Shown piece by piece: positions 11,018 to 57,278 of a DNA stretch of 64,000 bases. Each line of letters opens with the position of its first letter. The stretch's first letter is position 1. The stretch covers positions 224,001 to 288,000 of the forward strand of contig CM000433.1 of assembly GCA_000165345.1 (NCBI GenBank). The letters are read 5' to 3'. The notes under the pieces are model-generated. The model worked only from the letters and a program-made list of their open reading frames with translations, made no database searches and was not told the DNA's origin. The translations under genes and the position numbers were made by a program.

Positions 11018-14000
11018 ATGGATGTAATTTTTTCAAGAATTACACTTGAAGAGCTATCATTTCTCGGTTGGAGTGGAAGCTCTATCGATGAGTTATTTAT
11101 TAAAGTTATTTCGAGAATATTAAATGGACCATATAGAAATTTTGCATCTTTGTTTAGAAATCCTTCTTATAAAGGAAAAATAATAGAAATAATTGCTTCC
11201 CACAAACACACTTTTGTAAAGGATAAATTAAATGGAATTGTGCATTCTTTCAAGAATTGTACAGATTATTATTCTTCAGAAAATCTACTATTTGAAGCAA
11301 ATGATTGTATAAAGAATCATATATTAGACTTGAATATTTTCTCAAATATATCTGAAGTTGAAGGAAGGCTTTCTGTATACATGACAATTGCAAGTAAAGG
11401 ATTTAATGGGTGTTGGCAATATGAAATTTCAAGATTACTTAAGATGGATCCCAAAATGGTGTTTCAACACCTCAAGTATTTATATAAGTACGACAATATT
11501 GTTAGGTTCTCTATTCCAATGCCGACAAATCATAAAAAAAGATTATTTCCCAATGAAGACTCAAACTCATCTTCAGGAGGTCATCTTTCTGCAGTTATTT
11601 GGTTGACTCGGTTCTTTGACATTAATCTTATTCCTAGAGAAATTTCCCAGTTAATTTGGTATCAACACATTCAACCCCTGAGTACTGAGATTGTAAGAAT
11701 TTTAGAATATAAAGCGCCTGGGAAAATAGCATGGGAAAAAGATATTAGAGCTCTTTGCGCAGGATTTATGATCGTTCATGACGAGAATTCAGCAGATCAC
11801 CTCATCTGCTCACAGAGAACTGCCAATAAGGTCTTTAACAAATTGAGAGATTTTTTATTAACGAAAAATGTTAGAAGAGTATTCGCATGGCATCCACTAA
11901 CTAAATCATACTCTCCTTGTCTGTGCTTAAAGGATGCCTTTCCATCTACAACCATTGACTTATCGTCTGAAATTACTGTTAAGGCAGAGACTCATGTTTC
12001 TGAATTAAATATTACCAATAATGAAGACTCTAATTGTCAAAGAAATAACCCGAATAATGAAGATAAAGCTAATGCAAATAGTGGTTTTTTCCATGACTTA
12101 TATCAAGAAGAAATTCAAGTTTCCACTGGAAATAAAATATTTGAAATTACTGAAGCAGCGCAAGTCTTATGGTTAATAAGAGCCAGCGGAAGAGTTGGTT
12201 TAGTCTCTCTAGATATAGTAAAAGTATTCGGTATAAGCATGAAAAGGCTCGGAAAACTGTTATCAGACTTGTGCAAAATAAAGATAATTAATAAGATTCC
12301 GCAAAGGTATAATCGGACATTCATGTATAGATATTATTTTAATAATATTATCTTCTCTCTGAAGGCAGTCACAAATAATAAAACTGACAAATTTACGATA
12401 GATCTGGATAATTATGATAAAAATAAAGTAGACGTAAAATCTGAAATAAAAAATATTGCAATAATGTTTAGTGAAGCTTTTCCAGATAAAAAAATGGAAT
12501 TATCCGGCGTTACTGAACAATTTGTCAAAAGACTAGTCTTAATGAAAAAATGGATAGACGAGTCAAAAATTCTTACGATCCCTGAAATTGCGAAGCTTTT
12601 TTCAGAAGCTGAAAATACTCAAAACGGACCTGACAGAAAAACTATTAAAAGAATATTATCTAAAATTTTGGAATTAGATGAGTACTCGAAGGAATCAAGC
12701 ATTATTCCATGCAAAAATAATAATACATTATCTTCTTCCGGAGAAGTCACGATTTTTTTTTCTTTGAAATTTTACAGTGAAGACGAAGCGAGGGATTTAA
12801 AAGCTACTGAATTAAAAAACAAAAGATCATCTACAACTAAATCTGCAATTGAAAGAAGGAAAAAGGAACTTTCACAGGTTGCTGCAATAATTGATGCATC
12901 CAATTCGTTATCTCCAAACAAACAAAAAGAAGTTTCGGTTATTAATCAATCAAATCATTCTTCTAACGCTATTTTGTCTCAAACTGGTACAAAAGTAATA
13001 TGCGACGATCCGAATCAAGCAAATATACCGAGATTAGTAACAAATAAAATAGGAGATGCTACAGTTATGTTAAATACTCCAGATTTTATGGTTGCATCGT
13101 TAAACATAGAAATTAATGGAGATGATAATTCCGTGAATGATATATTAAGTTCTAAAATAAACAATTCTGATTCAAAACTCCATATTCCTGGGATAGAGTT
13201 TAATAAAAAAATAAGTTTTGATCCTTCAAAAAGAATTAGCCTTGGATTTTCAAATTTATCTAAGGGAGGAATAAAAATTCAGTCAAGCCAAGGAAAAATA
13301 GGATTTTTATCTTTTAGCCAAAAAATTCTTGCGCACTATGGATTTGTATTTCCCATTATGATACGTTTAAAGATTTTACATCATCACTTGCTTTTTTTAT
13401 GCAAAGAAGGTGGATTTAAATGTGATTTGCTGTCTTCTAAAGAAATTTTAGACAATATGACAATAGATACATTTCTTAGAGTAATAGGATTTGGACATAG
13501 ATCAAGATTTATTGAAGAATACCTGCTATATGGCACTAGTGAGACTTTCAAATTTGGTCAAAATACACGTATAAAAGAACTTCCATCCAATCTTTATGAA
13601 ACACTTACAAGGAATTATCCAAAAAAGTTTTTTTTTGGATATGGGAAAAAGAAACACATGAAGAATTATGAGAAAGGTAGGAAAGCAATATCTGTCCTAT
13701 ACAAACTTTTATTTCTACTTTGCAAACTTAATTTCATTAATTTTTCGATAGATGATTCTAAAGAAATTGATAAATCTAATTTTAAAATTTCAAATATTAA
13801 TCAAATGAATATAGAGAGCGTTCCAATATCATCGCCAATATGGAAATTGGAATATAACTTGAAGATTCCTATTCTTATTGATGCTGAGAAGAATGAAATA
13901 GAGAGGCTAACTGAATACATTAAGCATACAAATGTTTCATATAGTTTAAAAAATAGTGAGCAATTTGAACAATTTTGGGCAATTTTAAACAAAGAGTCTA

Positions 14001-16969
14001 TTGATACACATAACTATATTATAGAGTTTAAACCATATAACTATATTACAGTTTTCCCAGACATATTGTTGAAAAGAAATTGGAAAATTAATCCATTATT
14101 ATCAATAAATATAAGAAACCAGCTGGAAAAGTACGCTAGACAATTATTATTTGACAATGCAAATTCATCAAATACATTCGATGAACCAAAAGATAAAACT
14201 CATATTGTGTTATCATTAGCCTCACCAGAAATAAAAAATATTTCCAATGAGCTGGCAATAAGCCCTTTAACAACATTGAAATACTTAATACGTGTTGTTG
14301 ATTCGTTGTCATTAGAAGAATTCAATTTTTCAAATAATCCAGACTCTGCTAAAAGAATTAGTTTCCATCCAATTCGTGATCCCCGTTATCAATGCCATAT
14401 ATGCCATGCTTTATATTCAACACATCCAGCAATGATTTCTCATTATAAGACAATTCACAATATTTACTCGATTACAAACTCTTCAATGTATACTATAAAA
14501 AAAGACAGTTCATTGATTTCCAAAAATAAAAATATTAACTTTAATTCTACAATTAGAACTCAAATACTTAGTGAAAATTATATTCCAAATACACTAAAAC
14601 ATTTGTTGGAGACAAAAGAAACTGATAATACTTGCAATGAGATTGAAAGAACAGATAAGATTGAATTACTCAGAGCATTCTTGAGATTAAGTAAGGAAGA
14701 TATAATTTTGCTATACATTATACTATTTATCAATAATAAAGTAAATATGAAGAATAAAAAATTACTCTCTAACAATTACTTATTTAGAATACTTTCATTT
14801 TGCAAAGAAAAAAAAATTGAAAGTAATTTATTTAGCCTTCAGTTTTTGCGAATTAAGTCATTGATACAAAAAATAAGTGGAATATCAGGAAGCAACTCAA
14901 TTTGTATTATTGAATTTATTTTTTCTTGTTTAAAGACAATTTACCCTTTGAACTCAAAATTGCTGGAAGCAATAAAATTAAAAGAAAAACAAAGGATTTG
15001 TTGGAGTCATTTACTAGAAGTTAATTCATTTTCTAATAGGTGGAAAGTATTTACTACCAAAGAATCAAACTCATCTATAATAGCTTCGAACATCATACCT
15101 CTATTAGATTATTCAGTAAATAATGAATATTATCATAATTTCTCTGGTTCTGGTGGTAAGGATTCAAATATTTCATTTTCAAAAATAGATTATTTACTTG
15201 TTATTAATCTTATTAAATCAGAGTTGCTTACACAAAAAAAAATAATGCAAAAGCCAATTTTTAGGTTTGCTAATCATAATATATTAGCCGAAGAACAAAT
15301 TAAACACTACTTTGAGGACTCTATTAACAAAAATATTTTGAAACAGATTCATCGTAATTCAGATTTACCAAAATTTGAAGAATCCCTCCATAATTATTTA
15401 AATAGATTTGCACCAACTAGGAGAATGTTGCTAAACTGCTTTGGCAAGACAATTGTTTGGCGTGAAATTTTTAATCTTTGCTTTGCTTTCCTACAGATTA
15501 ATTATTCAAAAGGTACAAAATTTAATGTTAACGCTCAAAATACCAATGGAGCATTTGTGTTAAATCATTTAAATAACTTGATAGAGAATAATTGTACTTT
15601 AGAAATAGAATGGAACGATCACGATTTTTATGAAAAGGTATCAAATAAAAACGATGAAGAATTATTCAGATTATTAAATGAGGTGGTTGATCAACAAAAT
15701 TCATTTGAAGATTTCTCTGAGGAATTGAATCTGAATACTGAAAAGTCGATGTTAGATTCTCAATTTTTAAAAAATAAAATGAATCTGAATGTTACAAAAG
15801 AGAATGAAGCAATTTCGAACAAGACAGATAATCTCGGAAATTCAGAATATTTTGAAGATAGCAATAACAAAAACCCAACAATATCCAACATTACAGCAAT
15901 TTATTTAAATAAGCATATTAGCAACAAGTATCTCCCCAATTTCATGGAAGTAGAATACTCATTAATAAATATTCCATTTCTAGGTGCAATGGATTCTGAT
16001 CCCTTGGAATTTAGCAAATTGCCTTCTAATTTTTCAATTTCTGAGATTCTATTGAGTTTTTCTGAAACAAAACTAAAAAATTCAAGTAGAGAGACTATTG
16101 ACCCAATTTTTAAAATTATTAAAGCTGTTTCAAGATTCATAGTTGACTCCAGCTCAAATGAGCATAATCTAATAATGAAATCAATTTCAATTATTATATA
16201 TACATTGAAGAACAGTCCCTGGTTAACAATGAACGAAATTGAAGAGATATTTTTTTTAAAATTTTCTGATTTAATTTCTGAATTATTAATAATAGGATCA
16301 AAATTTATCGATTCGGGAATTCTTTTCTATGAATTTAGGTTACCTATTATTTATCATATTATTTATTTATTGGAAATACTTAGAATATGTATAAGAATAC
16401 CGACAGAAGGAAATTGGTTATTTTCATTATTTTGCTCTATAAATAATAAGTTAGTTGAATTTAACATTGATAATCTTAATAATAATAATAATGATAATAA
16501 TAAATTAACGAAAAATAATGGAAATATCTTAATACCAAATAATGTTCCAACAAGAATATGGCTACTTTGGTCGAATGAAGTCGTTTTACAATTATTTAAC
16601 GAAAAAGAGTTAAATTTGATCGTTAACAATATTAACAAATCTCTATTTGAAGTTTTTGAATTAAATTTTATTGTACCTCCAGAAATTTACTTGAATAGAC
16701 CACAAATCAATTGTTTCGTTTCTGTTGATGGACAAATAAATTTGCCAATTTGCGGATTATTGATTTATTTCATCTCTTCATTAATTCACAGATCGCCAAT
16801 ATTTAATTTGTCAGAATTCACCTCGCGTTTCTCTTTCTTTAGCTCCTGCGAGATTGAATTAATTCTGGAATCTATGTTTGCTGAGAATTGTCTTTACAAA
16901 GATAACACACAAATAATTTTTTCAAAGCCTATACAAGATATTTTTAAAGTTTATGAAGGATATCTATAA
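11018..16969 (+). CDS. GTF3C1: TFIIIC B-block-binding subunit (tau138 / TFC3 / GTF3C1-like), 1983 aa, with one C2H2 zinc finger
   Basis: A single 5.95 kb ORF. The C-terminal block 'VDGQINLPICGLLIYFISSLIHRSPIFNLSEF...CEIELILESM' parallels the GTF3C1 C-terminus ('[33 protein letters not shown]...LELLQGLESLGC'). The N-terminus resembles a TFC3-type winged helix ('LEELSFLGWSGSSIDELFIKVISRIL'). C2H2 finger 'YQCHICHALYSTHPAMISHYKTIHN'. Confidence 0.55.
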   Translation: MDVIFSRITLEELSFLGWSGSSIDELFIKVISRILNGPYRNFASLFRNPSYKGKIIEIIASHKHTFVKDKLNGIVHSFKNCTDYYSSENLLFEANDCIKNHILDLNIFSNISEVEGRLSVYMTIASKGFNGCWQYEISRLLKMDPKMVFQHLKYLYKYDNIVRFSIPMPTNHKKRLFPNEDSNSSSGGHLSAVIWLTRFFDINLIPREISQLIWYQHIQPLSTEIVRILEYKAPGKIAWEKDIRALCAGFMIVHDENSADHLICSQRTANKVFNKLRDFLLTKNVRRVFAWHPLTKSYSPCLCLKDAFPSTTIDLSSEITVKAETHVSELNITNNEDSNCQRNNPNNEDKANANSGFFHDLYQEEIQVSTGNKIFEITEAAQVLWLIRASGRVGLVSLDIVKVFGISMKRLGKLLSDLCKIKIINKIPQRYNRTFMYRYYFNNIIFSLKAVTNNKTDKFTIDLDNYDKNKVDVKSEIKNIAIMFSEAFPDKKMELSGVTEQFVKRLVLMKKWIDESKILTIPEIAKLFSEAENTQNGPDRKTIKRILSKILELDEYSKESSIIPCKNNNTLSSSGEVTIFFSLKFYSEDEARDLKATELKNKRSSTTKSAIERRKKELSQVAAIIDASNSLSPNKQKEVSVINQSNHSSNAILSQTGTKVICDDPNQANIPRLVTNKIGDATVMLNTPDFMVASLNIEINGDDNSVNDILSSKINNSDSKLHIPGIEFNKKISFDPSKRISLGFSNLSKGGIKIQSSQGKIGFLSFSQKILAHYGFVFPIMIRLKILHHHLLFLCKEGGFKCDLLSSKEILDNMTIDTFLRVIGFGHRSRFIEEYLLYGTSETFKFGQNTRIKELPSNLYETLTRNYPKKFFFGYGKKKHMKNYEKGRKAISVLYKLLFLLCKLNFINFSIDDSKEIDKSNFKISNINQMNIESVPISSPIWKLEYNLKIPILIDAEKNEIERLTEYIKHTNVSYSLKNSEQFEQFWAILNKESIDTHNYIIEFKPYNYITVFPDILLKRNWKINPLLSINIRNQLEKYARQLLFDNANSSNTFDEPKDKTHIVLSLASPEIKNISNELAISPLTTLKYLIRVVDSLSLEEFNFSNNPDSAKRISFHPIRDPRYQCHICHALYSTHPAMISHYKTIHNIYSITNSSMYTIKKDSSLISKNKNINFNSTIRTQILSENYIPNTLKHLLETKETDNTCNEIERTDKIELLRAFLRLSKEDIILLYIILFINNKVNMKNKKLLSNNYLFRILSFCKEKKIESNLFSLQFLRIKSLIQKISGISGSNSICIIEFIFSCLKTIYPLNSKLLEAIKLKEKQRICWSHLLEVNSFSNRWKVFTTKESNSSIIASNIIPLLDYSVNNEYYHNFSGSGGKDSNISFSKIDYLLVINLIKSELLTQKKIMQKPIFRFANHNILAEEQIKHYFEDSINKNILKQIHRNSDLPKFEESLHNYLNRFAPTRRMLLNCFGKTIVWREIFNLCFAFLQINYSKGTKFNVNAQNTNGAFVLNHLNNLIENNCTLEIEWNDHDFYEKVSNKNDEELFRLLNEVVDQQNSFEDFSEELNLNTEKSMLDSQFLKNKMNLNVTKENEAISNKTDNLGNSEYFEDSNNKNPTISNITAIYLNKHISNKYLPNFMEVEYSLINIPFLGAMDSDPLEFSKLPSNFSISEILLSFSETKLKNSSRETIDPIFKIIKAVSRFIVDSSSNEHNLIMKSISIIIYTLKNSPWLTMNEIEEIFFLKFSDLISELLIIGSKFIDSGILFYEFRLPIIYHIIYLLEILRICIRIPTEGNWLFSLFCSINNKLVEFNIDNLNNNNNDNNKLTKNNGNILIPNNVPTRIWLLWSNEVVLQLFNEKELNLIVNNINKSLFEVFELNFIVPPEIYLNRPQINCFVSVDGQINLPICGLLIYFISSLIHRSPIFNLSEFTSRFSFFSSCEIELILESMFAENCLYKDNTQIIFSKPIQDIFKVYEGYL

Positions 16970-51245: not shown

Positions 51246-54065
51246 TCACTCATTAGATTGAGAACTATTTTTATCATTGTTTAATGAGGGCGGTGAAGAA
51301 TAACCAAATTTGACGGAGTCGGAAGTATCTTCGTTAGGAACAAACTTAGAGAATAAAGGCGCAACTTCCGTACCATTTAAGGGGGATAAAGCGAATTTGC
51401 CTTGAGAAGTGCCATTTGTGAGTATTAAGCTTGAACTAATGTATCTTTCATTATTTAAATTTGTAGTTTGATTCATTGTGTTTGAGCTTCCAGGCGCTCT
51501 ATCAAGCTGATCGGATTTATCTTTTATATAATTAGGATTAGATTCAGTTGAATTTAATGAATTGATATTGGTTCCATTGTATTGTGATTGACTTGAGTTC
51601 GAGACATTATTTATAACGTTAGCTGGTGTAGTTGTAGTTGTAGTGTACTTTTTGAAAATGTGTTGATTTTGTAATAAGTCTGTTTGCTTTTCTGACCTTT
51701 TATCTGTTGCATTATTAGATTGATTGATTCTATTTTTTGCATCAGAGTTGTTATCGTAAGTTTTATTCGTTTCCTTAGTCGCTTCAGGAGAAGTAGTATT
51801 TAATAACTTTTTTTGGGCTGGAATAATTAAATTTGAGTCATCATTTAACTGGGTGTTAGTAGGCTGTAATCTATTATTATTTTGAGATAAAAGCATTAAA
51901 GTATTTGAAAGCGAGCTGTTAATGCTAGCTGTGGTGGCGGTTGTTGTTGTAGTGGTAGTGGTAGTAGTTGTGGTAGTAGTTGTGGTAGTAGTTGTGGTAG
52001 TAGTTGTGGTAGTGGTAGTAGTAGTAGTAGTTGTTGTTGTTGTAGACGTTGTATAATATGGCTTAAAGAATTCCTTTTTTGGTAGGAAAGAAATATTGTT
52101 TAGATCTATTTGGTTAAAAAGAGATGATTTACTAGCTTTTTGAGAACTGTTTGTATTCTCTCTGAGCCTCCTATTCACAGATGCAATTTTGCCAACATTG
52201 GAAGCGTTCAAAAATAGGTTTGCTTCAGTAGTAGTAGTGGTTGTTGTGGTAGTAGTAGTTGTGGTAGTAGTAGTTGTTGTGGTAGTAGTAGTAGTAGTAG
52301 TTGTTGTTGTTGTTGTCGTAGTTGTAGTTGTTGTGGTAGTAGTTGTTGTGGTAGTAGTAGTTGTTGTGGTAGTTGTAGTAGTTGTGGTAGTTGTAGTAGT
52401 TGTGGTAGTAGTAGTTGTTGTGTAATATGGCTTAAAGAATTCCTTTTTTGGTAGGAAAGGAATATTGTTTAGATCCATTGGATTTATAAATGTTGATTTT
52501 ACAGTTTCTTGTGGGCTATTAGGACTNNNTNNNTANNNTNNNNNTTNTNNGANGCANTAGNANNANNNNNNGATANNNNNANNNNTNNNNNNAGNATNNN
52601 CNNNNNGNNGNNNTNGNNNNNGNNNNNGTANTNNNTNGNTNNNTNNNTAGNGGTGAANNGAGNANTGGTANTNGTGGTAGTAGNTGTNNTTGNGGNACGG
52701 TTGTAGNANTTNTNGTGGTGAGNNGTNNNANNTNNANNAGTAGNNNNGGTAGTANNNNNNNTTGNANNGTNTNGNANTANTAANGTTNNGNTANNGAANT
52801 ANNANTAGNTNTNNTAGTNNTAGTAGTAGTAGTAGTTGTTGTTGTTGTTGTGGTANTAGTAGGTAGTTGNTGNNGTTGTGGNAGTAGTAGTTGTNGTGGT
52901 GGTAGNAGTTGTTGNTGTTGTGGTAGTTGTAGTAGTTGTTGTGGTAGNTGTAGTAGTTGTGGTAGTAGTTGTAGTAGTAGTTGTAGTTGTGTAATATGGC
53001 TTAAATGGGATTCAAAAATTTTTCTTTCATTTGGAAAAATGGATTGTTTAAATCTATNGGAAGAAAAAAGTTTGGTTTTGCAATTTCCTGCGATGAATTT
53101 GAATTGATTTGTGAAACTTCATTGCTTGCTGTGATACCTAAACTTGGCGAGTTCAAAGCTAGACTTTCTGCAGTGGTAGTAGTTGTGGTAGTTGTTGTTG
53201 TTGTGGTGGTAGTAGTTGTGGTAGTGGTAGTTGTTGTTGTTGTGGTAGTGGTAGTNGTNGTTGTTGTGGTAGTGGTAGTTGTAGTAGTTGTTGTTGTGGT
53301 AGTAGTAGTAGTTGTTGTNGTNGTNGTTGTTGTGGTAGTGTAGTGGNTAGTTGTTGTAGTGTGGTGGGTAGTTGTGNTGGTAGTAGTAGTTGTGGTAGTG
53401 GTAGTAGTAGTTGTGGTAGTGGTAGTAGTAGTTGTAGTTGTTGTTGTGGTGGTAGTAGTAGTAGTTGTTGTTGTTGTCGTGGTTGTGGTAGTTGTAGTTG
53501 TTGTTGTGGTGGTAGTAGTAGTTGTAGTAGTTGTAGTTGTGGTTGTGGTAGTTGTAGTTGTTGTGGTAGTTGTTGTGGTAGTTGTAGTTGTAGTTGTTGT
53601 TGTGGTTGTGGTAGTAGTAGTTGTTGTGGTTGTGGTGGTAGTTGTTGTTGTGGTAGTTGTTGTCACTGGTCTAAATGGTCTAAAGAATTGTTCTTTCATT
53701 TGGAAAAATGGATGGCTTAAATCCATTGGATTAAAGAACGACGAGGACTTCACAGTCGAATCGTTTCCCAGTAACACTTTAGAACTATCCAAATTAGTGC
53801 TATTTGTATACTCAGTAGATAAAGGCATTCCGGGCAAATCGATGCCACCTATGCCAGTTAATATACCTTCAGAAGCATTTTTACTGTTTGTTACGTAGGA
53901 TTCATCTATATTACTTGGTGTGATTTGATTACCTCCTAACTCACTATTCCATGCCTCTGATTTATTTTCAGAGTATGTGATGGTATTAACTTCACATAAA
54001 GCATACTTTGAAAATTGAAGCAGAAGAAAGAAAAATAAAGTCGAAAAAACCTGTAGAAAATTCAT
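51246..54065 (-). CDS. secreted mucin-like glycoprotein with four poly-threonine tracts separated by a repeated aromatic/basic module; spans a low-quality N-containing patch and one apparent frameshift
   Basis: Signal peptide 'MNFLQVFSTLFFFLLLQFSKYALC' (ATG 54063-54065). Modules read 'DLSHPFFQMKEQFFRPFRPV-(T)n', 'IDLNNPFFQMKEKFLNPI', 'DLNNIPFLPKKEFFKPYY-(T)n' and 'IDLNNISFLPKKEFFKPYYTTS(T)n'. Ser/Asn/Thr-rich C-terminus. The track ORFs 53001..54065 and 51246..52478 are parts of one gene. Confidence 0.6.
51932..52052 (-). repeat. poly-Thr (ACN)n coding tandem repeat, tract 4
   Basis: (GTAGTAGTTGTG)n-type trinucleotide array on the plus strand. Confidence 0.8.
52228..52424 (-). repeat. poly-Thr (ACN)n coding tandem repeat, tract 3
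   Basis: GTN triplet array about 200 bp long. Confidence 0.8.
52527..52856. other. degenerate, N-interspersed consensus inside the poly-Thr region (unresolved or collapsed repeat)
   Basis: Single bases alternate with runs of n, but the GTN periodicity is still visible ('gtggtagtagntgtnnttgngg'). Confidence 0.7.
52857..52990 (-). repeat. poly-Thr (ACN)n coding tandem repeat, tract 2 (continues into the N patch)
   Basis: GTN triplet array with scattered n. Confidence 0.7.
53170..53670 (-). repeat. poly-Thr (ACN)n coding tandem repeat, tract 1 (~165 codons)
   Basis: About 500 bp of uninterrupted GTN triplets, with a few n. Confidence 0.8.
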
Positions 54066-54258: not shown

Positions 54259-55011
54259 ATGAGGAGACTACAATCATTCAAGACACCATCAAGGTTAAAT
54301 GAAAAGTTAAAGTTCTCAAACAAGAGCAATAGCATTAACGATGCTACGATAAACAACAGCACAAAATTTGTTCCAAATATAAGTGCGTTCGATTCTAACG
54401 AAGTTTTAAATAACAGCGCTCAAACAAATGATATTTCATTAAGAAATATAAAGTTTGACGAGAAGTCTGAACTGGAAGAGGTTGAACGGACTAATAGTTT
54501 GCAAAGCTTTGATTTGCCTTCAATAAAGGCTATTAAAAGATTTGAAGCTTTAAATAAATCAGGAAAACAAATTTTAATTTACGATCAGTCCAATAATATT
54601 TCTGTTGAGCCAACAATTGACAACCGAACCGTAGGTGTCTGCAATCATATTTCTGAATCTGGGATCGAAAATGTTCACAACAAATTAGAAGGCTGGTCTG
54701 TGTTTCAATTACCCAAATATATGCCTGAAAGTAAAAAAAACTACTGCGAGATTAGCAAAAATTCTACTCCTACATTACTACACGACACTCCCTCAGGTTC
54801 TATTGGTAAGCTAATATTTAGGCAAGACGGTAATATAGATTTATATTTAAATTCAAGCAAAGACAAAGAATGTACCTCGTTCAAAATAGACTGTATATCG
54901 AAAGACAATTCAGAGCAATTTATTGCTGCATTTTCAAAAATAAATGAACTAATTAACCTCGGGAAATGTGATTCATTATTAATTGCTACCCCTAAAATAC
55001 AAAAATATTAG
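54259..55011 (+). CDS. hypothetical protein, 250 aa
   Basis: ORF with a true ATG at 54259 (MRRLQSF...). No domain recognised. Confidence 0.4.
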   Translation: MRRLQSFKTPSRLNEKLKFSNKSNSINDATINNSTKFVPNISAFDSNEVLNNSAQTNDISLRNIKFDEKSELEEVERTNSLQSFDLPSIKAIKRFEALNKSGKQILIYDQSNNISVEPTIDNRTVGVCNHISESGIENVHNKLEGWSVFQLPKYMPESKKNYCEISKNSTPTLLHDTPSGSIGKLIFRQDGNIDLYLNSSKDKECTSFKIDCISKDNSEQFIAAFSKINELINLGKCDSLLIATPKIQKY

Positions 55012-55025
55012 AGTATAGTCAGAAT

Positions 55026-57278
55026 TTAATTAATTCTAATGTTATTATCTTCGAACCATGTAATTGGGAACCACTTAGGGAATACTCGTTTATATAATGG
55101 CATTCCTACTACTTCGTTTTGCTGTATTGGTCTGCTGAATAAGCATTTCATATATCCATGCATGCCCAAAGGTTCTCTTATTATTCCTCTGATGCCGCTC
55201 CTAGTTCTCAATCCAACAGATTTGAACCACTTGACGTCTTCAGGATTGTTAAACATATTTCTTACAACAGCTTTCGATTTTCTTACTTTAAATAGGTTGC
55301 CAACTAGCACTATTCTTTTAACAATAACACGATATGGGTCTGCATCAAGGATGTCACCCCATGCGAGAGGCCAATCATTTAATGTAAAATTTCCAGGCTT
55401 GAAGTTTTTATAAGTAATTTTATTTTGAGAATTAGAGTTTATATCACGAAGTGAAAAAAGTAAAATAGGGCATGGGGGAAAAACGATTGTGCTGTAGCAT
55501 GAAATAATGTAATAATCTCCATGTAACAAGACTTTGCATTGCTTCAGTATCTGAGTCCTTTCTATTTTAGTCGCAGATGAAATACGAGGACAATTACTTA
55601 CTATGGGACATATGTAAAATCTCCTAAACCCTGCTTGTAAAACCAATGGTGTTTTATTCTTGATTAAATCATTATTCTCAGCTGTCCTTTTTATCCTAAA
55701 ATTCATAACCCCAACTTTTCTTTCAAAAGGTAAAATAGATGATAAAATTATTATTCGATTTGAAACATTCTTATCTTTTAATGCTCTTTGTGCTTCCGAA
55801 GATACAGGGGATAATTTAATCTCGCAATATTTACCTTTAAAATTTTCTTGGTTGCAATTATCAACATAGATTTTTCTGGAGATTTCTCCTGTCTTTTTAA
55901 ATGATTCGATTTCAAATATTTTGGAATATTCACTGGGAAGATTTTCAAACGGATCCCAGTTGGAAGTTCTCAGAGATTCTAATCCTCGATATTTTTTAAA
56001 ACGAGTACGGCAAATAGTTTCTATTTCAACTCTCTTTTCATCAGAAGAAATCTCATGCTCATCTTCAGATTCATCAGTCAGAATTTCGTGCATACTGTCA
56101 ATTTCTGATTCTAAATCTAAATTGTCTTCATAGTGTTCAATACCATTAGCAGATAAATTATTAGGAGTATCAATGTGCATAGACTCAGCATATTTACAGA
56201 AGTCTTCATGTGAGCTATCATCAAGAGAAATGGAATTTTCCATTCCAATGGTCCCAACAAGTTCTTTATTTAAAATTTCATTGTTTTTTAAGCCACTAGG
56301 AATAAATTTATTATGGCTGGAAGGAGGAGTAGAAGATTTATGTAGAGGATCATCTATGGGACGAATTTCGTCAATAACGAAATCGCCAATATTAGTTATA
56401 TGGACAGGAAAGTTCATGGATAATCCTACTCCACGTACAAAACCTCTAATGACGAGTTGACATTTTTCTTCATTAGAATAATTATTTACTACAATGCTAG
56501 ATGATTCCGAAAGCATGTAGCCTCTTCCTTCTCTTAAGCATATTTTTGAATAGCCCATATTAGGAATTGAAGATAACAAGTTTCGAATATCATTTTCTTT
56601 CTGTAGAGAGAAAAATTTCATATTCTTCTCAAATTCCATTTCGAATGATTTCTTAAATACTTTTTCGCAATCCAAAATCTTATTGCCGAAATTATGACTC
56701 TCATTATGGAAAAAAAGCCCTATGGTATCGGTTTGGCCTTGAAGTTTTATAGATTTTAGTAATTTATATCCAATTTCATCGAATGCTTGGAATTCATCGT
56801 TAAACCCAAATAAGGCCATGACAAAATCCGAGCATTTGATTAAGTCTAACGTATCAAAAATTTTGTTATATTCTGCAATACAAATAGATAGTTTATGCTT
56901 GCCTATGTTAAATGTGAATACACTATTTGAGTTATTTTGAAAATGAATCTCAGATTCAGAGTTTCCAGGATAATGAAGATAAATATAATTGGATAATACT
57001 TTGACAACTGAAATAGGATCGCAATAAGAGTTAAATGGAATAATTGTGCACAGTATTGGAGTTCCTAACTGACACGCCTTTTCTTCTTTCCTTAAGTTAT
57101 TAGAAATGATTTTATTTTTTCTGAGTTGATTTTTTTGATTTTCTCTATTTTTCCCAGAAAGTGGCTTTAAAAAACTTTCATTACACTTTCTAAGTCTTTG
57201 ACTTGATTTCTTGCGTATGGACGATCTACCTTTGAAAGGTTTGTTGGACTGTTTTAATATCGGTTTATGACGATGCAT
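55026..57278 (-). CDS. TSR1: ribosome biogenesis protein TSR1 (Bms1/Tsr1 family), 750 aa
   Basis: C-terminal 'VIVKRIVLVGNLFKVRKSKAVVRNMFNNPEDVKWFKSVGLRTRSGIRGIIREPLGMHGYMKCLFSRPIQQNEVVGMPLYKRVFPKW' is colinear with the Tsr1 C-domain. Basic N-terminus. Confidence 0.8.
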   Translation of the reverse strand: MHRHKPILKQSNKPFKGRSSIRKKSSQRLRKCNESFLKPLSGKNRENQKNQLRKNKIISNNLRKEEKACQLGTPILCTIIPFNSYCDPISVVKVLSNYIYLHYPGNSESEIHFQNNSNSVFTFNIGKHKLSICIAEYNKIFDTLDLIKCSDFVMALFGFNDEFQAFDEIGYKLLKSIKLQGQTDTIGLFFHNESHNFGNKILDCEKVFKKSFEMEFEKNMKFFSLQKENDIRNLLSSIPNMGYSKICLREGRGYMLSESSSIVVNNYSNEEKCQLVIRGFVRGVGLSMNFPVHITNIGDFVIDEIRPIDDPLHKSSTPPSSHNKFIPSGLKNNEILNKELVGTIGMENSISLDDSSHEDFCKYAESMHIDTPNNLSANGIEHYEDNLDLESEIDSMHEILTDESEDEHEISSDEKRVEIETICRTRFKKYRGLESLRTSNWDPFENLPSEYSKIFEIESFKKTGEISRKIYVDNCNQENFKGKYCEIKLSPVSSEAQRALKDKNVSNRIIILSSILPFERKVGVMNFRIKRTAENNDLIKNKTPLVLQAGFRRFYICPIVSNCPRISSATKIERTQILKQCKVLLHGDYYIISCYSTIVFPPCPILLFSLRDINSNSQNKITYKNFKPGNFTLNDWPLAWGDILDADPYRVIVKRIVLVGNLFKVRKSKAVVRNMFNNPEDVKWFKSVGLRTRSGIRGIIREPLGMHGYMKCLFSRPIQQNEVVGMPLYKRVFPKWFPITWFEDNNIRIN

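Follow-up and report, generated by a model that had tools for sequence, protein, structure and literature searches.

The Muc14 locus and its interrupted reading frame

The window analysed here, a 64,000-nucleotide stretch of the Cryptosporidium parvum Iowa II assembly GCA_000165345.1 (contig CM000433.1, positions 224,001 to 288,000), carries on its minus strand, at positions 51246-54065, a single gene of chromosome 5 that encodes the mucin-like protein Muc14. Four threonine (Thr) tracts and four copies of a short aromatic and basic module were found in this region, as a preliminary description of the sequence had proposed, and the modules fall into the two subtypes that it had distinguished, PFFQMKE[QK]F[FL] (type A, copies 1 and 2) and I[PS]FLPKKEFFKPYY (type B, copies 3 and 4). 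The gene has already been catalogued as mucin-like and is hence not a new candidate as such. Locus cgd5_1210 is listed as Muc14, its orthologues being Chro.50263 and cubi01812, with no counterpart given for C. andersoni (PMC5146892, Table S2), and is described as a mucin-like gene within an insertion/deletion (INDEL) hot spot of chromosome 5 (PMC9317183); cgd5_1210 and cgd5_1220 were both reported as 'large repetitive sequences' that were unmapped in short-read assemblies (PMC4407392). By the order of the gene numbers, cgd5_1220 would correspond to the N-terminal half and cgd5_1210 to the C-terminal half of Muc14. The features of the locus, all on the minus strand and given from the N-terminus to the C-terminus in amino acids (aa) or codons, are as follows.

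53994..54065, minus strand: start codon and predicted signal peptide MNFLQVFSTLFFFLLLQFSKYALC, the putative start of cgd5_1220 (hydrophobic N-terminus by inspection; kept in 9 species)
53748..53993, minus strand: N-terminal non-repeat region, aa 25-106, rich in N-glycosylation sequons and fast-evolving (identity comparison; no Pfam family)
53664..53747, minus strand: module copy 1 (A type) SSSFFNPMDLSHPFFQMKEQFFRPFRPV, abutting Thr tract 1
53187..53663, minus strand: Thr tract 1, ~160 ACN codons, with a few ambiguous bases (N) and miscalls
52991..53186, minus strand: unit A2, spacer AESLALNSPSLGITASNEVSQINSNSSQEIA and module KPNFFLPIDLNNPFFQMKEKFLNP(F)KPYY, holding a one-nucleotide insertion and a false stop
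~53090-53004, minus strand: module copy 2 (A type)
52630..52990, minus strand: Thr tract 2, ~120 codons, with frame shifts and low-quality N
52422..52629, minus strand: unit B, upstream half masked by 68 N; its readable bases match the L002 spacer ITAARGAESNFAISTISANASKNRRLRESPNSPQETV (L002 is a C. parvum locus introduced below)
52499-52422, minus strand: module copy 3 (B type) KSTFINPMDLNNIPFLPKKEFFKPYY
52242..52421, minus strand: Thr tract 3, about 60-65 codons
52044..52241, minus strand: unit B', EANLFLNASNVGKIASVNRRLRENTNSSQKAS and module KSSLFNQIDLNNISFLPKKEFFKPYY
52158..52172, minus strand: RRLRE, an RxLxE motif resembling the Plasmodium and Toxoplasma export elements (PEXEL and TEXEL), 14 residues before the module start; the sole fully readable copy in the window
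52127-52050, minus strand: module copy 4 (B type)
51954..52043, minus strand: Thr tract 4, about 35 codons
51246..51953, minus strand: C-terminal region outside the repeats, about 230 aa, predicted to be disordered; its end is hydrophilic, and the stop codon lies at 51248-51246
about 51288-51398, minus strand: conserved C-terminal tail KFALSPLNGTEVAPLFSKFVPNEDTSDSVKFGYSSPP

The reading frame of the gene is interrupted in the window. The first minus-strand frame runs from the signal-like peptide through a ~160-codon ACN (Thr) tract and a spacer to a stop at 53003-53001, and a second open reading frame (ORF) of 410 aa (52478-51246) contains two further Thr tracts and the 230-aa C-terminal region. 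The stop is false and results from a one-nucleotide insertion at 53009-53007, where the window has an extra C (CCC, giving AATCCCATTTAAG) and two other assemblies have CC (giving AATCCATTTAAG). Three-frame translation showed that past the false stop the +1 frame carries on as FKPYY-TTTT, after which the frame slips a second time within a stretch of ambiguous bases. The 159 N of the window are all located at 52527-53377, within Muc14, and the rest of the window is clean; tract 2 and the start of the third unit contain more frame errors together with 151 of the 159 N. The annotated split into cgd5_1220 and cgd5_1210 was thus caused by the insertion and the patch of low-quality bases in this 2004-type assembly. 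The Thr-codon repeat of Muc14 is the sole low-quality stretch in the window.

One gene with a variable number of repeat units

Orthologous loci were fetched by synteny via Tsr1 and a 250-aa protein, both encoded next to Muc14. Intact single Muc14 ORFs were present in C. parvum GCA_048859185.1 (locus L002; 1237 aa), in two C. hominis assemblies (1214 and 934 aa), in chipmunk genotype I (1023 aa) and in C. felis (1456 aa), and Muc14 was therefore read as one gene. With single ORFs and modules found across isolates and species, the segments do not belong to separate genes. The earlier proposal of one secreted gene is borne out by these assemblies, although the frame of the window itself is broken by the CCC insertion, frame errors and N. 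The gene models cgd5_1210 and cgd5_1220 should consequently be merged, and likewise the split models in IOWA-ATCC, BGF and C. tyzzeri.

The number of repeat units was determined by a six-frame profile scan. A set of five units in the order A-B-A-B-B' was common to C. parvum L002, C. tyzzeri, chipmunk genotype I and the two C. hominis assemblies. C. felis has nine units, and at least seven were counted in the truncated contig of C. ryanae and at least two in C. xiaoi. The scan gave no module copies outside Muc14 in the window or the 18 loci. The C. parvum loci were at odds on the unit count (L001 13214-16733, L018 4205-7810, L002 13214-16927). Four units are present in the window, from which the first B unit of L002 is missing; Thr tract 1 of the window is probably collapsed relative to other assemblies, which have T350-B unit-T54 at this place. 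The IOWA-ATCC locus is frameshifted and contains three units. In the telomere-to-telomere assembly of BGF the locus is a single intact frame of 1201 aa, which contains three units and a Thr tract of 613 residues but is annotated as two genes (783 and 410 aa). Anchoring of this tract to L002 showed that it is composed of segments re-used from tract 1. The three- and four-unit forms may represent either real alleles or collapsed assemblies. Since the assemblies differ in having three, four or five units, INDEL calls at Muc14 in population studies need caution.

Muc14 is also a systematic assembly breakpoint. Eight short-read contigs from six species or genotypes (L003, L004, L009, L010, L012, L014, L016 and L017) terminate within the gene, and the breaks include those in C. 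parvum, C. hominis, C. ubiquitum, C. xiaoi and C. ryanae. A run of N still lies within the Muc14 sequence of the C. tyzzeri assembly.

Muc14 is predicted to be a secreted protein without a membrane anchor

The features predicted from the sequence identify Muc14 as a secreted, anchorless poly-Thr protein. The predicted signal peptide, recognised by inspection and kept in 9 species, has the hydrophobic core FSTLFFFLLLQF followed by YALC/E. No hydrophobic stretch, transmembrane (TM) helix or glycosylphosphatidylinositol (GPI) signal follows it, and the protein ends in the hydrophilic sequence ...VKFGYSSPPSLNNDKNSSQSNE. Thr makes up 54.6% of the full-length form; the Thr tracts span 35-350 residues and use a mixture of ACT, ACA and ACC codons, and 24 N-x-S/T sequons lie outside them. 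The predicted signal peptide ends with the sole Cys, residue 24; the mature part is Cys-free, and therefore no disulfide bonds are possible.

Pfam searches with the N-terminal region, a single unit and the C-terminal region gave no match at E<=1. The C-terminal 235 residues reached a mean predicted local distance difference test (pLDDT) score of 44 in a weak AlphaFold model made with no alignment. A second conserved island besides the modules is the C-terminal tail KFALSPLNGTEVAPLFSKFVPNEDTSDSVKFGYSSPP, which matched no known family in Pfam and has no confident predicted structure; the last 50 residues are 64% identical between C. felis and C. parvum.

In its signal peptide and long Thr-rich tracts, Muc14 resembles the other mucin-like glycoproteins of Cryptosporidium (GP900, GP60/gp40-15, Muc1-7 and Muc25). 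It also shares with them tracts that are predicted to carry single O-linked N-acetylgalactosamine (O-GalNAc), fast evolution outside the tracts and length polymorphism. Muc14 differs in lacking an anchor; GP900 contains a TM domain and GP60 carries a GPI signal.

A conserved module precedes every threonine tract

The module is a non-random repeat. The best pair of 18-aa windows shares 17 of 18 residues, whereas the maximum in 300 shuffles of the non-tract residues was 10 of 18, and a profile made solely from the C. parvum copies recovered the C. felis copies at E about 1e-11. An alignment of 35 copies from nine species or genotypes gave the consensus n-r-x-L-x-E-n-(5 residues)-E-x-x-K-S-t-F-F-n-P-i-D-L-N-n-i-P-F-x-P-k-K-E-f-F-k-x-P-f-y, with the Thr tract directly after it. 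The repeat unit can be written as [optional RxLxE] - 9 residues - K-S-[ST]-F-F-x-P-[IM]-D-L-N-x-[IV]-P-F-x-P-K-K-E-F-F-K-P-Y-Y - poly-Thr. The repeated module of ~18 aa noticed earlier is real as a repeat, but the unit is longer, comprising a 26-aa module and a motif 13-14 residues upstream. In all species the module lies directly N-terminal to a Thr tract, with the junctions K-P-Y-Y-T, F-K-P-T or K-Q-P-T.

Comparison between species shows that the module is the most constrained part of Muc14 and not a neutral relic of recent duplication. The B module of C. parvum is 77% identical to that of C. felis and 62% identical to that of C. ryanae. The N-terminal body, by comparison, shows 91% identity to C. 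parvum in C. hominis, 61-65% in chipmunk genotype I and 21-33% in C. felis; the C-terminal body of C. felis is 27-33% identical to that of C. parvum, and the housekeeping neighbour Tsr1 is 60% identical between the same two species. The modules, together with the RxLxE motif described below, are thus kept by purifying selection while the remaining protein drifts, and they are therefore likely functional. This agrees with the preliminary description, which had regarded them as functional units, and the contrast between 77% identity in the module and 21-33% in the remaining protein is what bears this out.

We considered whether the modules might instead be functionless, having arisen by recent duplication, unequal crossing-over, gene conversion or misassembly of a simple repeat. 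The B copies are nearly identical in DNA within C. parvum, the locus is an INDEL hot spot and the unit number differs between assemblies, all of which would be expected on this account. It was, however, largely refuted by the cross-species comparison and is highly improbable: orthologous modules are conserved between species whose flanks fell to 21-33% identity, the A-B-A-B-B' order is common to four species in independent assemblies, and the module is non-repetitive and present in Sanger, short-read and long-read assemblies, so that the modules are not assembly artefacts. Besides selection, some gene conversion among the B modules is likely, judging from their near-identical DNA.

Occurrences of the module in other proteins, for which a search had been suggested, were not matched in profile searches of protein collections. 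A 32-sequence profile gave no match in a word-indexed collection of 5.8 billion proteins, which lacks the Muc14 proteins themselves, and when 1.84 billion representatives were scanned exhaustively with a profile of the four window units, no match reached E<=0.001. The Muc14 proteins are absent from the clustered collection, and other low-complexity mucins may be missing from it too. In these searches, the combination of module and RxLxE motif was found in no protein other than Muc14, which sets it apart from the known Cryptosporidium mucins.

The conserved unit was found throughout the sampled intestinal species, as judged by sequence comparison. Muc14 has been said to be lost in C. bovis and C. 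ryanae (PMC7371110). We found in C. ryanae (L017 13232-15136) and C. xiaoi (L016 about 13230-14176) a poly-Thr gene with a signal peptide and recognisable modules, in synteny with Muc14 and flanked by the Tsr1/RPC4-like pair on one side and the contig end on the other. The non-repeat parts of these genes are about 9-35% identical to C. parvum, and orthology pipelines probably overlooked the genes because of this low identity and the contig break. The reported loss in C. ryanae should be revisited; for C. bovis, the evidence comes from its relative C. xiaoi. The conserved unit, the register of the RxLxE motif and this wider phyletic range seem to be undescribed, as no description was found in the literature searched.

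The tracts of C. felis Muc14 (L015 13130-17500), which has nine modules, are mostly (T6-8 E)n rather than pure Thr and therefore would bear a regular negative charge.

An RxLxE motif lies at a fixed distance from the module

Pentamers of the form RxLxE/Q/D or RRLxx were observed in Muc14, with three RRLRE copies in C. parvum and 2-6 sites in other species. All R.L.[EQD] sites lie 13-14 residues before a module start, in five species, with one exception, an extra RRLRE of C. felis that lies 70 residues before a module; no such sites were found in the N- or C-terminal regions of these proteins. The observed counts were reached in 0-10 of 2000 shuffles of the non-tract residues. Positions 1, 3 and 5 (R, L and E) are conserved and positions 2 and 4 vary (RRLRE, RKLRE, RVLVE, RILVE, RRLNE and RRLRD). 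The three NRRLRE copies of C. parvum use different codons, with a synonymous divergence (dS) of about 0.7 and a nonsynonymous divergence (dN) of about 0.08, so that the amino acids of the motif are kept despite synonymous divergence.

The pattern of conservation points to a PEXEL-type R-x-L-x-E motif rather than a furin site (RxxR). Cleavage of gp40/15 by a furin or subtilisin-type protease at RxxR is known. Cleavage of this kind was considered for Muc14 and ranked below the PEXEL type, since the P1 Arg is unconserved (RVLVE, RILVE, RRLNE) and R-x-L-x-E is conserved. Muc14 shares with the PEXEL and TEXEL substrates of plasmepsin V in Plasmodium and ASP5 in Toxoplasma an RxLxE motif, mostly RRLxE, in a protein of the secretory pathway, and Cryptosporidium, too, has a plasmepsin V-clade protease. 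It differs from them in that the motif is internal, is repeated three to six times per protein, belongs to a female-stage mucin and is recognised from sequence. The preliminary description had offered protease sites as one possible role of the modules, and the conserved RxLxE at fixed spacing provides a concrete, predicted candidate for this idea.

It is possible, but rather unlikely, that Muc14 is a polyprotein. RxLxE would then be cut after the Leu by a protease of the plasmepsin V/ASP5 clade in the secretory pathway, and the five-unit form would yield four separate mucin pieces, each starting about 11 residues before a module and stopping past a Thr rod; in its mature form each would expose the module at its head. 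The register, the conserved positions and the codon divergence described above all fit such processing. A clade D aspartyl protease of Cryptosporidium clusters with plasmepsin V (PMC8540915), and PEXEL-like motifs have been reported in C. parvum as uncharacterised (PMC12483598). ASP5 is reported to mature substrates at both their N- and C-terminal ends, and TEXEL sites can lie elsewhere than just after the signal peptide (PMC4764566). On the other side, cleavage is here a prediction from the motif, and the RRLRE sites are internal (aa 510, 801 and 930 of the 1237 aa of C. parvum L002), unlike the classical PEXEL position after the signal peptide. The Arg is missing from the A-type units and from several units of C. 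felis and C. ryanae. A weak single-sequence AlphaFold model places the RRLRE region in a helix over ASNVGKIASVNRRLRENTNS (pLDDT 84-88) and not in the extended form ready for a protease, and the LxE core is conserved without the Arg in C. ryanae, which would make a binding helix equally possible.

Muc14 is strongly induced in female gametes

Expression was taken from the sorted-cell RNA-seq of Tandel et al. 2019 (PMC6877471). In log2 counts per million (CPM), cgd5_1210 stood at 3.5 in asexual stages, against 12.1 and 12.9 in females in vitro and in vivo; the corresponding values of cgd5_1220 were 3.5, 13.2 and 13.9, and the log2 fold changes of the two genes were 8.6 and 9.6, respectively (PMC6877471, supplementary file 4). 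The induction in female gametes is thus roughly 400-800-fold, and both genes are in the top-500 female list with COWP3 and COWP7 (PMC6877471). Their parallel expression fits one transcript. Muc14 is among the most abundant female transcripts, with up to about 1.5% of the counts for one gene half. The BGF gene cpbgf_5001210 is among 15 female-exclusive genes within polycistronic transcripts (preprint 10.1101/2025.01.17.633476). According to a 2026 review, glycosyltransferases, mucins and a C-type lectin make up the second wave of gene expression in females, and they are secreted for construction of the oocyst wall (PMC13657310).

These data bear on the role that had first been suggested for Muc14, that of a mucin surface antigen for attachment and invasion, which would be placed on sporozoites or merozoites and whose modules would contact receptors or lectins. 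Muc14 is secreted and Thr-rich, and the mucin-like glycoproteins GP900, GP60 and Muc4/5 act in attachment and invasion (PMC12407990). Its mRNA, however, is near-absent in asexual culture stages and very high in sorted females, the IDs cgd5_1210 and cgd5_1220 do not occur in the sporozoite gene lists (PMC6877471, supplementary file 8), and the protein has no TM or GPI signal for retention at the surface. An invasion or attachment antigen is therefore an improbable description of Muc14, and this part of the preliminary description was not upheld. Known Cryptosporidium mucins have been studied in zoites and invasion or, for Muc25, in asexual-stage export, and Muc14 differs from them in being specific to female gametes.

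A proposed role in oocyst construction

We consider it somewhat probable that Muc14 is a secreted female-stage mucin for oocyst construction, in which the modules act as interaction nodes. The mechanism that we infer would proceed as follows. Muc14 would be made in macrogamonts, and its Thr tracts would be O-GalNAc-glycosylated to form stiff bottle-brush rods. As the oocyst forms, the protein would be secreted into the wall, into the glycocalyx or into fibrils inside the oocyst. The unglycosylated aromatic and basic modules at the N-terminal edge of each rod would serve as short linear interaction nodes, linking the rods by non-covalent contacts with one another or with further components of the wall, and the RxLxE motifs may be processing sites in addition.

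CysD domains are short unglycosylated hydrophobic elements between O-glycosylated rods, where they mediate non-covalent cross-links. Muc14 shares this punctuated architecture with the gel-forming mucins MUC2, MUC5AC and MUC5B, in which CysD interrupts the proline-, threonine- and serine-rich (PTS) regions. The two are not homologous: Muc14 contains no vWD, CysD or C-terminal cystine-knot domain, its mature part is Cys-free, and its modules are 26-aa linear motifs whereas CysD domains are folded and of about 100 aa. Another comparison is CST1 of Toxoplasma gondii, which carries SRS (SAG-related) domains. Muc14 has no SRS or other recognisable domain (Pfam), and the fit between the two lies in stage-specific expression. 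CST1 is reported to be a stage-specific secreted glycoprotein with a Thr-rich mucin domain that is glycosylated by polypeptide GalNAc-transferases (ppGalNAc-Ts) and rigidifies the wall of a transmission stage, the bradyzoite cyst (PMC3873430, PMC5225312), which makes it the nearest functional analogy for a female-stage Muc14. The Cryptosporidium oocyst wall proteins (COWP), characterised by Cys-rich type I/II repeats that Muc14 lacks, are merely co-expressed with it in females.

The role in oocyst construction is weakened by several points. No localisation, glycosylation or interaction data for Muc14 were found in the literature, and the basis of the proposal is stage-specific mRNA. The long-read-based IOWA-ATCC and BGF assemblies have three modules, and if this is real, the number of nodes would not be critical. 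The near-identical DNA of the B copies could partly reflect gene conversion and not selection within the species. In addition, a single-sequence AlphaFold model gives the module no confident structure (pLDDT 60-70).

The position of the module suggests a further explanation, in which it would dock or prime the initiating polypeptide GalNAc-transferase, or a chaperone of the endoplasmic reticulum or Golgi, for efficient glycosylation of the tract. The module lies directly N-terminal to every tract with Pro-rich junctions in all species, and candidate GalNAc-transferases exist in Cryptosporidium, one of which, the candidate ppGalNAc-T cgd5_690, is expressed in females. This explanation draws on the module position and on candidate enzymes. 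A general signal would be expected to be common to other mucins, and the profile searches found the module nowhere else. We therefore give it little credence.

The oocyst role could also be combined with proteolysis, such that Muc14 would be a polyprotein cut in female gametes by a plasmepsin V/ASP5-type protease, at the RxLxE motifs, into glycosylated rods whose aromatic heads dock into the nascent oocyst wall or glycocalyx. We regard this combination as unlikely. If true, it would be the first PEXEL-type processing tied to wall assembly rather than to host-cell export, and an assembly motif would have been defined for the first time in a component of the Cryptosporidium oocyst. The construction of the oocyst by females is poorly understood and essential for transmission (PMC13657310), and the conserved 26-aa module and the PEXEL-like motif offer two precise, mutable handles on an abundant female-stage protein.

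Neighbouring genes and opposite-strand reading frames

Several plus-strand ORFs opposite Muc14 (52189-52425, 53005-53343, 53343-53720 and 53359-53898) were rejected as genes, since they encode poly-Val or Cys/Gly/Ser sequences that are mirror images of the ACN repeat. The Tsr1-like neighbour (55026-57278) is identical to Tsr1 of the chromosome-level C. parvum assemblies. The 250-aa neighbour (54259-55011, plus strand) has the same sequence as EAK88122.1 of C. parvum Iowa II and corresponds to cpbgf_5001230 in BGF. This gene, cgd5_1230, is annotated as 'hypothetical protein' and gave a weak Pfam match to RNA_pol_Rpc4 (E 1.5e-4, 22.5 bits, cut-off 26.5); its C. ryanae orthologue matched the same family at E<=1e-5 and its C. 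xiaoi orthologue weakly. By these matches, cgd5_1230 probably encodes the RNA polymerase III subunit RPC4.

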